Shown here in pieces: positions 1-9,181 of a DNA stretch of 20,000 bases (the stretch's first letter is position 1; each line of letters begins with the position of its first letter). The position numbers were made by a program, and so were the translations under genes. Below the pieces are notes generated by a model, which made no database searches, was not told where the DNA came from, and saw nothing but the letters and a program-made list of their open reading frames with translations. This DNA is from an uncultured virus (IMG/VR IMGVR_UViG_3300036715_000208) (lineage: Duplodnaviria; Heunggongvirae; Uroviricota; Caudoviricetes): IMG/VR virus record IMGVR_UViG_3300036715_000208. One strand, given 5' to 3'.

Positions 1-1287
1 ACTTACTTTGAATTCCTCAACTGCAACCTTTCCACAGGAAGAATAGATCAGTGGTTTCAACAGGGATGAAAACATTCCATCTCCGTAGTTTGATTCCACT
101 AGGATCCGACGAACCTTGTAAGCATTTGCAAGCTTTGCAATTTGCATCAATGTTACGTTATCGTATCCTCCTTGAAGACCTGTCAGTGCGTGTACAACGA
201 GGTATCCATTCACAAAGGATACAACACAGGCAGCTGTTTCGTCAGCTCCTCTACCAGAGGGATCAATGAACATACAGGTTTCTGTATACTCTATCATAGT
301 GGGGGATACCCACATAGGACCATATAGAAAATCATTATTAAGACCATATGATGGAATCTTTAATGGTGTTCCTCTTGCCCATACTACCTTCTCTGGAAAC
401 AACTCTGCGGATGTGTCCATAATAATTAGATCTTCTAATCTTAGTGGAAACTTTCTGGCATCACTGAGGGTTGGATCAAGTAAATAGTGTAGAGCAAAGT
501 GACGTGGACCAATCTTAGCCATTCTTTCATCAAGAACATGCTGAGGGAATCTACCAGGATCTACTGTAGATCCTGGCTCTACCTCTAACTGTAGGATGTA
601 TTCATCTACATGAAGCATCTGTGACTCAATGTCTGGATCTGGCATTACTGCTGGAAACTTTACAATTGGATAGGGAAGACGAAGGTAGATAGAGTCAGTA
701 CTTTGGTATGTACCTAGGAAGATGATTCTTCCGTGGTCAACTGGGTTCCTGATCTGTTCTAGTTCTGTTAGCCTGTCCAATAACCTACCACGGGCGGAAG
801 GGGTATCTGAGTTCTTCTCGATCTCAATATCGTCCAGTAGAATGTAGTCGGCGTGTGAGCCTGTTAGCTGCCCCGTCACGCCCTTTGCGTAACAAGATAG
901 GTCTTGCCCCTTCTTTGTGCGGCAAGCCACGTTAAAGCCAAATGCGTTGTCCTTATCGAAGTCCCTGGGTACTATGTGTGCCATGTAGGGGGTAGAGGAT
1001 AGGATCTGTCTAACCTGTGAGATAAACTTAATTGCCTTATCGGCTCCTGCCGACACTACCATGATGGTTGCATCGGGATCTTTTAGTAACAGCCAGCTGG
1101 CATATGATGCCATGATTGTGGATTTACCAGCACCACGACCAGCCTGTAGCTGGAAGTCTCGTAGTCCTGTTTGAATCTTATTTGCGATTGCATATTGTAG
1201 GGGAGATGGTTCCCCAAGACCTAGATACTTAAAGGAAAAAAACAAATGGTTTCTAAAATCCTCTAGTACTTCTTCTGGTACATTCAT
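1..1287 (-). CDS. terL: Terminase large subunit, T7 gp19-like (3' end runs off the window)
   Basis: Not in the ORF track because its stop lies outside the window. Manual translation from ATG 1287 (SD GAAAGGAGGT at 1300-1291): MNVPEEVLEDFRNHLFF...; Walker A QAGRGAGKS (1146-1120); KGVTGQLTGSHADYILLDDIE (Walker B); IIFLGTYQ; HYLLDPTLSDARKFPLRL; nuclease motif MFIDPSGRGADETA. All are collinear with T7 gp19 motifs. Confidence 0.96.
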   Translation of the reverse strand, partial: MNVPEEVLEDFRNHLFFSFKYLGLGEPSPLQYAIANKIQTGLRDFQLQAGRGAGKSTIMASYASWLLLKDPDATIMVVSAGADKAIKFISQVRQILSSTPYMAHIVPRDFDKDNAFGFNVACRTKKGQDLSCYAKGVTGQLTGSHADYILLDDIEIEKNSDTPSARGRLLDRLTELEQIRNPVDHGRIIFLGTYQSTDSIYLRLPYPIVKFPAVMPDPDIESQMLHVDEYILQLEVEPGSTVDPGRFPQHVLDERMAKIGPRHFALHYLLDPTLSDARKFPLRLEDLIIMDTSAELFPEKVVWARGTPLKIPSYGLNNDFLYGPMWVSPTMIEYTETCMFIDPSGRGADETAACVVSFVNGYLVVHALTGLQGGYDNVTLMQIAKLANAYKVRRILVESNYGDGMFSSLLKPLIYSSCGKVAVEEFKVS

Positions 1288-1300
1288 AGTACCTCCTTTC

Positions 1301-1333
1301 AAAAACCCCCATCCCAGATCAAGGGACGGGGGC
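1301..1333 (-). terminator. Intrinsic terminator immediately upstream of the terL RBS
   Basis: Minus strand gCCCCCGTCCC-ttgatct-GGGATGGGGG-TTTTT: 10-bp GC-rich stem (one G-U), 7-nt loop and U5 tract, followed directly by GAAAGGAGGT. Confidence 0.8.
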
Positions 1334-1336
1334 GGT

Positions 1337-1510
1337 AGCGAGATATCCACACAGGGGATCGCCCTATGCGCATAGCCCGATGATGGCTCCCCAATAGACG
1401 GAGAGCCACAGGGCGACCGTTGCCATGCCCGTCAAGGCATAGCAGGTCGAATAGCGTAACCGCATCTGTCCCCTCGTTGCCAGCGTGGGGTCTATGTCAG
1501 ATGGATCGCT
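1337..1510 (-). ncRNA. Highly structured RNA element (structured small mRNA, leader or ncRNA) between terS and terL
   Basis: About 60% GC (125/210 counted over 1301-1510) in an AT-rich window. Minus-strand stems: CATCTG/CAGATG with CCCC/GGGG; CGACC-TGCTATGCC/GGCATGGCA-GGTCG (1449-1414); TCGCCCTGTG/CATAGGGCGA (1416-1407 with 1368-1359); end-to-end AGCGA-TCCAT/GTGGA-TCGCT. The non-Watson-Crick pairs within these stems are G-U on the minus strand. Confidence 0.65.
1364..1465 (-). CDS. 33-aa hydrophobic peptide MRLRYSTCYALTGMATVALWLSVYWEPIIGLCA (type I toxin-like or leader peptide candidate)
   Basis: ATG at 1465 preceded by GAGGGG (1475-1470), TAG at 1366-1364. Basic N-terminus followed by a TM-length hydrophobic stretch. 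Below the ORF-track length cutoff. Confidence 0.5.
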   Translation of the reverse strand: MRLRYSTCYALTGMATVALWLSVYWGAIIGLCA

Positions 1511-1518
1511 TGAATGCC

Positions 1519-1722
1519 TTAGCCTAATTTCTTAAGCCTGAATGGGATAAGGTTGTCCAAGGTTTCTGCACGAATATTCGCAGCGTCTTCCTTGGTTGGT
1601 TTGTTATCTGCGATTACACGGGCAACAACTTGGTATAGTCCAGGACCACGCTTCTCTGGATCCATAAGATCCTCTACTAAGCAGTCCACCAATAGTTCCT
1701 TCAGTGTATCAATGTTATTCAT
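1519..1722 (-). CDS. terS: Terminase small subunit, T7 gp18-like
   Basis: 67 aa; EDLMDPEKRGPGLYQVV resembles the gp18 'DL.D.E.R.PQLY.A' motif; lies upstream of terL. Confidence 0.75.
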   Translation of the reverse strand: MNNIDTLKELLVDCLVEDLMDPEKRGPGLYQVVARVIADNKPTKEDAANIRAETLDNLIPFRLKKLG

Positions 1723-8385: not shown

Positions 8386-8664
8386 TTATAATGTGTTAAA
8401 AACTCCACCAGCGTCGATATCGACACCAGAGGAACCAAAAGCATCTCCACCGTCTTGATCATTTACTTGCGTAGGTGCAGAGGTTACGCCATCAAGTATA
8501 ATTTGTTTATTCTTACCACCTGTTCCTGCGCTGGTATCTAAAAGAATAATGTTTCCAGATGCATACTCAACGACTATATCTCCAACTGAATTTACATACA
8601 TCCTAGCGACACCCGTCCGAATTGGAGCGGGTGTGCTAGGAACGTTACGTTTATAATTTGGCAT
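8386..8664 (-). CDS. Hypothetical 92-aa protein, possible fibre adaptor (C-terminal DGG-type motifs)
   Basis: Start reassigned to MPNYKR (SD AGAGGAG); C-terminus IILDG...DQDGG...DIDAGG; precedes the long fibre. Confidence 0.65.
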   Translation of the reverse strand: MPNYKRNVPSTPAPIRTGVARMYVNSVGDIVVEYASGNIILLDTSAGTGGKNKQIILDGVTSAPTQVNDQDGGDAFGSSGVDIDAGGVFNTL

Positions 8665-9181
8665 TTTTTCTCCTCTTGAATTCGGCATCCAAGACTGGAT
8701 CCTTTGCTCTAAGGAATGCTATTGCTTCTCTAATATTGGTTTGTCCGTTAAGGGTTTCATCCAATAGTTTTGCCTCTTGTTTCTTTGCTTCTGGAATATA
8801 TCCAACTAACTTTTGCATCAGTCTTCCTAGTCCAGAGTACCACAGTAAGACAACGATACCCAATATGGAGATCGCTATCATTACTATTTGTATGGTGTTT
8901 GCCCACCAAGGCACGGTATCAACTACCCCCGAAGTCGCTTCGATAATTCCTTCGGTCTTCTCAATGATATCGGTCTGTTCCAATATCCCTTGATTGGATC
9001 TTTTCTGAATTTCTGAGAGTCTTGGGAGGATTGCTGTTGCGGCTTCGTTGATTTTTTCAAAGTTATTCTTTGAGTCCTGTGCAAGAGATCGTATAGAATT
9101 AGAACTCTTCTGTATCTTCTCTACTGAAGAGCATGAAATCAACGCTAAGAAACTAGTTAATAGGATCGTTCTTATCAACAT
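8651..9181 (-). CDS. Lipoprotein with a second, C-proximal TM helix; spanin-like
   Basis: Signal peptide MLIRTILLTSFLALIS-C with lipobox Cys17; helical/coiled-coil segment; TM WWANTIQIVMIAISILGIVVLLWY; SD AAGGAG; overlaps the upstream gene by 29 nt. Confidence 0.7.
   Translation of the reverse strand: MLIRTILLTSFLALISCSSVEKIQKSSNSIRSLAQDSKNNFEKINEAATAILPRLSEIQKRSNQGILEQTDIIEKTEGIIEATSGVVDTVPWWANTIQIVMIAISILGIVVLLWYSGLGRLMQKLVGYIPEAKKQEAKLLDETLNGQTNIREAIAFLRAKDPVLDAEFKRRKNAKL

Follow-up and report, generated by a model that had tools for sequence, protein, structure and literature searches.

Between a terS-like gene and the gene for the large terminase subunit (terL) of a freshwater phage lies a conserved structured RNA that is under selection on the coding strand. 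Fixed words within this element are complementary to the functional core of 23S rRNA and, judging from the sequence comparisons, it is probable that the RNA pairs with 23S rRNA. If the RNA binds, it would represent a new layer of phage translation control and a natural access to a site that is essential for subunit joining.

Genomic setting of the element

The window, which is the whole stretch of 20,000 nucleotides that was analyzed, lies at the end of a contig of 66.9 kb, terminally redundant and from a T7-like freshwater phage, with the genes on the minus strand. This contig encodes a T7-type RNA polymerase, a DNA polymerase, a portal protein, a capsid protein and four tRNA genes. The element itself was delimited by a covariance model match at positions 1299–1510 of the minus strand, directly behind the stop codon of a 67-aa open reading frame (1519–1722, minus strand). 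The latter likely encodes TerS, as indicated by its position upstream of terL, which is kept in relatives. It had no match in Pfam or PHROG, and its Atlas neighbours, which carry PF11123 (DNA_Packaging_2) on 14% of their members at scores of 0.88–0.89, provide a lead only. On the other side of the element, the Shine-Dalgarno sequence AGGAGG (1292–1297, minus strand) precedes the 5′ part of terL (1–1287, minus strand; phrog_38, E 3e-75; PF22530), which runs off the window. A search of GTDB with TerL returned a single match that was 34% identical. A weak hint at a host among the Planctomycetota came from a cohesin/dockerin-like gene (G000:C1:19726-20445), of which the top Atlas cluster leans toward this phylum; the phylum is known for five members, and other phyla appear in the next rows.

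Several further features of these genomes were recorded. The tRNA cluster (G000:C1:13652-14002) was resolved by ARAGORN into Arg-TCT, Lys-TTT, Leu-TAA and Ile-TAT; it is followed by a strong Shine-Dalgarno context as at terL, and similar sets are present in relatives. An open reading frame of 4443 aa (G000:C1:26937-40268) likely encodes an unusually large internal virion protein. In the marine relatives L147, L214 and L234, the genes before terL end in a tail with basic residues, which we take to be of the PAPG/PGPG type.

Fold of the element

The original prediction had described positions 1301–1510 as a GC-rich structured stretch, and this description held. The GC content was 59.5%, compared with 41.6% for the window, and the minus (coding) strand folded with −106.6 kcal/mol (z −6.0), an energy that none of 200 shuffled controls reached, whereas the plus strand had a z of −3.3. 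When the 3′ hairpin was left out, these values were −4.6 for the coding strand and −1.9 for the opposite strand. In all 20 elements tested, the coding strand folded better than the opposite strand which, together with the covariation described below, bears out the claim that selection acts on RNA from the coding strand. Since a z of −6 or lower was also found for 2 of 159 further 210-nt windows across the genome, the folding z alone is not decisive, and it is the homologues that settle the structure. Other low values on the coding strand were found near G000:C1 55675 (window ∼8590–8800), 25015 and 51895, with z of −8.1, −6.5 and −5.4, respectively (20 shuffles each).

The copy in the window adopts a multibranch fold of 72 pairs, 8 of them G-U, in which the longest uninterrupted helix is 11 bp. 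All of the stems named in the original prediction (1503–1463, 1449–1414, 1416–1359 and the closing stem 1510/1337) do form, but they take up 69% of the letters rather than almost all of them and, by inspection, the closing stem and the long 1416–1359 stem are not common to all homologues. Switching between mutually exclusive stems is suggested by competing short pairings that recur across the homologues and not by the near-optimal folds of the window copy, which differ only locally. What the original prediction had missed is that the hairpin at 1333–1301 resembles a terminator, with its U run, and that the conserved words are antisense to 23S rRNA.

Read from 5′ to 3′, the element has first a stem that presents CAUAG, followed by UACGCUA and a hairpin whose base is fixed. 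A short GCC/GGGC stem, AUGCG and an optional hairpin come next, and after the word UUUCGCUAC there is a hairpin of 11–13 bp, with a brief stretch of U ahead of the terL Shine-Dalgarno sequence. All coordinates that follow are on the minus strand. The first stem, P1/P2 (1463–1503), holds CAUAG in a bulge (1496–1492), a candidate anti-H69-loop word and pseudoknot strand, which was invariant in 18 of 18 aligned rows; in every row with letters at these positions its UAG is able to pair with block E, with no two-sided changes. Block E (1448–1460) makes 13 contiguous pairs to 23S positions 1967–1979. The P3/P3a hairpin (1412–1449) provides block B in its 3′ strand (1420–1412), antisense to 23S 1903–1911; two-sided changes were found at seven of the eight P3a pairs, and the sequence of basal P3 was retained. 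The next stem, P4 (GCCC/GGGC; 1374–1414), encloses a lineage-specific hairpin (1407–1385), and its loop can pair with the bases that immediately precede block C (the mean run was 4.7, against 4.0 across clades and 3.4 when shuffled). Positions 1349–1373 comprise AUGCG, referred to as block D, and the optional P5 hairpin; block D fits 23S 1963–1967 only if the host 23S rRNA has U1967. Block C (1334–1348) is antisense to 23S 1929–1942 (H70, loop 70).

The 3′ hairpin (1301–1333), with 11 bp and U5, directly precedes the terL Shine-Dalgarno sequence. In all 19 long forms of the element it has 11–13 bp and lies 0–1 nt from block C, whereas in the short forms it has 13–18 bp and lies 2–4 nt away. 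Two-sided changes occurred in 10 of its 12 pairs, with 100% of the cells paired. As in intrinsic terminators or class I terminators of phage RNA polymerases, a GC-rich hairpin is here followed by a U run (U5 in the window). This terminator-like hairpin is probably leaky, because many homologues have a run of only three U. An antiterminator pairing was sought by eye; no matching upstream strand was seen, and the sequence of the 3′ hairpin turns over completely.

Conservation and distribution of the element

Homologues were collected by TerL-based and pattern searches, and 22 distinct elements were analyzed, namely 19 long and 3 short representatives. Upon alignment of 15 homologues, RNAalifold revealed two-sided changes in 20 of 31 pairs. 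A hand-drawn structure had 91% of its cells paired and two-sided changes in 24 of 44 pairs, above all slid controls, although it was derived from the same sequences on which it was scored and P1/P2 was partly misaligned. The covariance model, for which 15 homologues but not the window had been used, matched the genome at a single site, 1299–1510, with 30.9 bits and an E of 1.3e-7. Across these homologues the distal stems vary freely while the conserved words are fixed. Both the folding energy and the covariation thus came out in favour of the proposed RNA, as did a check for novelty, since Rfam 15 at E ≤ 1 in the window had no match at the element. When five homologue loci and the phage's own genome were compared with Rfam, only tRNAs were detected, and ARAGORN and a BLAST search of annotated phages yielded nothing at the element.

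The proposed independence from the encoded peptide was likewise upheld. A 33-aa open reading frame lies within the element (1364–1465, minus strand), but an equivalent was present in none of the other 21 elements, so that a conserved peptide was rejected, and no conserved small open reading frame of the leader-peptide kind was seen. A phage promoter was rejected as well, as TCGCTAC occurs just once on the coding strand of the genome.

Among 83 distinct TerL loci, 23 had the long form, 8 had a short form that retains only block C, 51 had no element and 1 was unknown, where the long forms were counted by pattern label and L001, L036 and L126 were assigned to them by hand. In a quick TerL tree, absence of the element was nested among carriers. 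Five related records without the element were searched whole, two of them at least 90% complete, and all five had neither the 9-nt word nor a match to the model; this word occurred exactly once in each of five carriers. Loose pattern scans gave mostly chance matches, and the true ones, among the matches listed, were all located between terS and terL. In the relatives L132, L138, L145, L211 and L215, which do not have the element, different, CCTAGG-rich hairpins are found between terS and terL. A search for partner genes detected no co-occurring enzyme that acts on RNA, and several small open reading frames track the long form, but they also track relatedness and are missing from the short-form genome.

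Assembled contigs from three RNA runs (X1–X3), from which transcript ends, strand and level are not readable, cover the 5′ part of the element, are continuous with the upstream genes and break near block C. In runs X1 and X2 a close strain was observed with a different P5 and a different 3′ hairpin, both of which are still paired.

Complementarity to 23S rRNA

The starting point was a resemblance of the 3′ word to the complement of 23S rRNA near helix 70, and all tests came afterwards, with 23S rRNA of E. coli rrnB as the reference. The conserved words are complementary to 23S 1903–1913 (block B), 1929–1946 (block C) and 1967–1979 (block E), in helices 67–71. These three target strands build H67, the base of H68/H69, and H70. 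Block C pairs with 23S from 1929/1930 to 1942, with up to 18 contiguous pairs in L032, and the complementarity is extended in a lineage-specific manner: to 1946 in L032, to 1927 in L205, and by 13 pairs at 1967–1979 in the clade of the window. Over the family, block C had 251 Watson-Crick, 11 G-U and 24 mismatched positions (286 in total), block B had 146, 20 and 5 (171), and block E, at 23S 1971–1977, had 98, 32 and 3 (133), counts that represent cells of related sequences and not independent events. As each block has an internal partner, the wobble pattern of B, C and E is not independent evidence.

An unweighted score for the three blocks was computed over eight clade representatives. The best 90-nt rRNA window was found at 23S ∼1889–1990, with a score of 24.5, whereas the maximum for shuffled rRNAs was 19.9 ± 1.3, and 2 of 1282 of them came up to 24.5. 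This score was attained neither by any of 50 natural chunks of 4.45 kb nor by any window of the phage's own genome. In cofolding, 23S 1890–1990 ranked first of 27 fragments for five of the eight representatives and third to fourth for the other three. By comparison, single rRNA matches of 12–14 nt are common: a scan of 11 genomes gave 11–37 of them in each.

Blocks B and C have targets that were identical in all seven bacterial 23S rRNAs fetched. Because of this identity, E. coli ribosomes can be used for a direct test even though the phage is uncultured. CAUAG makes four to five pairs with 23S 1914–1917 and is mismatched at A1918; this mismatch, and that of block D at C1967, were seen in 7 of 7 fetched 23S rRNAs. 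For the 23S rRNA of the host, G1918 and U1967 are predicted, and possibly A1972. In the window, block C is among the weakest of the family: it has eight contiguous pairs plus three, with a C-A mismatch, at −17.8 kcal/mol compared with −16 to −29 in the family, and there are longer runs at other rRNA sites. The P3a hairpin of L007 and L009 contains an extra run of 13 pairs to 23S 1938–1950, inside the variable hairpin.

Two further explanations for the rRNA match were tried and rejected. A sense mimic of domain IV would agree with the H69-like stem P3 but leaves block C unexplained, and the model had no match in the rRNA operon. Captured rDNA and an integration site were set aside on account of the order of the blocks, which is not collinear.

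Related antisense words in other phages

A 14-nt antisense word was present in about 290 viral stretches, compared with about 190 for the reversed control. Of these stretches 120 were fetched, and 83 of them were distinct and not rDNA. In 14 of the 83 the match extended by at least four further pairs (18 or more perfect pairs), whereas 1.3 were expected under a null of equal base frequencies (P 5e-11). Downstream of these 14 extended matches, a hairpin with a U run was found in 9 cases on the antisense strand and in 1 case on the other strand. Second blocks of at least eight pairs were in modest excess, with 18 observed and 11.5 expected. The 10-nt block C word was absent from both phages inspected for it, PA5oct and Paride.

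In L525, L549 and L568, block E, a looped CAUAG and block C with an adjoining 13-bp hairpin were recognized. The model scored L568 with 31.5 bits and L525 with 25.3 bits, in sources that had been preselected for block C. In L559, D and E form one contiguous antisense word, and in L500, L528, L575 and L608 CAUAG is located opposite the H69 loop. The contigs of L559 and L575 carry a T4 gp23 capsid gene and no related TerL. It is somewhat more likely than not that at least two unrelated phage groups, T7-like and T4-like, encode RNAs that would pair with the intersubunit core of 23S rRNA and, in a snoRNA-like manner, would open H67–H71 so as to sequester or remodel 50S subunits or mark them for cutting; the element behind the terS-like gene would be the multi-block form of the T7-like phages.

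Some of these loci deserve separate mention. L525, L549 and L568 form a separate family of RNAs of about 150 nt (about 60–230 of each locus) on small fragments of large phages. A hairpin loop and stem in L517, L554 and L562 (around 151–164) makes 18–23 perfect pairs to 23S 1926–1948; these hairpins lie in AT-rich intergenic DNA, two of them before a strong Shine-Dalgarno sequence. Intergenic elements antisense to 23S 1924–1946 and followed by terminator-like hairpins were seen in L547, L548, L528, L566, L575, L608, L583 and L592, some with a second block to 1965–1977 or 1899–1910; that of L583 adjoins a tRNA gene.

A proposed model for action on the 50S subunit

We propose that the RNA would form the 3′ terminus of a segment transcribed late, with its end set at the 3′ hairpin through partial termination or through trimming. 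Until block C has nucleated on loop 70, short internal pairings would leave the antisense words only partly open. According to PMC5408214, loop 70 is cut by MazF-mt6 in 50S subunits and not in 70S ribosomes, and it is needed for subunit association. Helices H68–H71 are described as undocked or flexible in pre-50S particles in PMC11260487, and U1915 in the H69 loop is converted to N3-methylpseudouridine (PMC7694415). In our view, this modification would block pairing there on mature subunits. Given the accessibility of loop 70 and H68–H71 and the modification of U1915, we prefer free or immature 50S subunits as the place where block C would nucleate. Blocks B and E would then pair, and the paired RNA would hold H67–71, including H69–H71, open, such that the 50S subunit neither completes its assembly nor joins the 30S subunit. 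As a result, part of the host 50S pool might be removed.

Pairing with 23S rRNA is surer than this specific sequestering outcome. Whether the RNA pairs with free or maturing 50S subunits, holds helices 67–71 open and prevents their assembly from finishing or the 30S subunit from joining is, in our estimate, evenly balanced. A point against it is that the phage might itself suffer if 50S subunits were blocked while its late genes are expressed.

In the literature and in Rfam, with most subscription papers lying outside the search, we found no natural bacterial or phage RNA that acts through pairing to the functional core of 23S rRNA. Viral action on ribosomes by an RNA that would grip the host's large subunit has apparently not been described. 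Fremin et al. 2023 (PMC10690425) report RNA candidates that precede terminases, and the motif of the element may be among those left unnamed.

Alternative explanations

Pairing with 23S rRNA could also be protective: the RNA would shield or splint the rRNA where a defence ribonuclease of the host cleaves it, in the region of H69–H71. Such a target exists, since the UUCCU of loop 70 is cut by MazF-mt3 and MazF-mt6 (PMC5408214) and is covered by the longest C blocks, and the patchy gain and loss of the element would fit an arms race. Yet the invariant core of block C covers 23S 1930–1938 and not 1940–1943, and the L048 clade is mismatched at 1940 and 1942. Moreover, unfolding of H69 would itself disable the subunit, and a scan of 38 proteins revealed no RNA ligase. 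We consider protection unlikely.

A TURBS-like tether in cis, which would hold the 50S subunit released at the terS stop codon for restarting translation at terL, would explain why the element always starts at or over the terS stop codon. It would also suit the distance of 49–60 nt between block C and the next AUG in 15 of the 22 elements; in the other seven, however, this distance is 87–127 nt. In addition, a terminator-like hairpin intervenes, terL has a strong Shine-Dalgarno sequence of its own, related words occur before terminators in other contexts, and pairing to H69 should block joining, all of which makes a tether doubtful.

There is also a small chance that the element is purely intramolecular and acts in cis, by attenuation, stability or processing, to set the TerS:TerL ratio, in which case the rRNA match would be fortuitous. 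The location of the terminator-like hairpin next to the terL Shine-Dalgarno sequence and the internal partners of the conserved words speak for this. It conflicts with the shuffled-rRNA, natural-chunk, cofolding and other-phage results; internal pairing requires no fixed sequence, as illustrated by the other stems, which vary freely, and the U runs often measure just 3 nt.

Rather improbable, in our opinion, is an external guide, in which the duplex of block C with 23S rRNA would stack on the 11–13-bp hairpin to give about two helical turns, so that an RNase III-type host enzyme cuts 23S rRNA near 1930. For cutting by RNase III, about 11 bp counted from the distal box are necessary and 22 bp are ideal (PMC3867540). 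The length and the 0–1-nt spacing of the hairpin are kept despite sequence turnover, and block C adjoins a hairpin in the same way in L525, L549 and L568. This geometry is nevertheless not shared by the short forms, with hairpins of 13–18 bp at 2–4 nt, and long stems are also typical of phage-polymerase terminators.

A φ29-type packaging RNA or an RNase III site like T7 R18.5, both raised in the original prediction, is highly improbable: a location between the terminase genes and a length of 150–210 nt would suit a packaging RNA, but the element is missing at 51 of the 83 distinct TerL loci, in a nested pattern that argues against this function, and in 5 of 5 related records searched whole, it had no Rfam match, and its multibranch fold, without a helix beyond 11 bp, differs from the single extended hairpin of ∼22 bp expected of an R18.5-type site by the substrate rule of PMC3867540. 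The riboswitch that had also been suggested was not supported.

Comparison with known systems

Box C/D and H/ACA snoRNAs are eukaryotic and archaeal guides and rRNA-folding chaperones. Like these, the element bears, on a scaffold that varies, short single-stranded stretches that complement conserved large-subunit rRNA in the region of H69, and such rRNA-complementary guide blocks are indeed present; it differs in being phage-encoded and in its bacterial target, and it has no conserved C, D or ACA boxes in the two alignments inspected (A2 and A3), no Rfam match and no partner enzyme. The trans-acting, loop-presenting bacterial antisense sRNAs of the CopA/CopT and OxyS type resemble the element in that they expose several short blocks, pass from a closed to an open fold and have a terminator-like hairpin at the 3′ end. 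Their target is an mRNA or primer RNA, whereas the predicted target of the element is the 23S functional core. The TURBS of caliciviruses, which are termination-reinitiation elements, are likewise viral rRNA-complementary RNAs near a stop/start junction, but they pair with small-subunit rRNA in eukaryotes, while the element matches 23S rRNA and has a hairpin and a separate Shine-Dalgarno sequence in between.

Every phage with a φ29-type motor depends on its pRNA, which attaches to proheads and oligomerizes by loop-loop pairs. The pRNA that forms the scaffold of φ29-type motors (PMC13595956) is similar in size and in its packaging-gene neighbourhood, but the phage studied here has a T7-type terminase and many of its relatives are devoid of the element. 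The cabRNA of staphylococcal phages derives from the terminase genes themselves and triggers CBASS (PMC10686824), in contrast to the intergenic and rRNA-complementary element. Our comparison thus places the element outside every known family tested, and it would be expected to work like a snoRNA-type or a loop-presenting antisense RNA.
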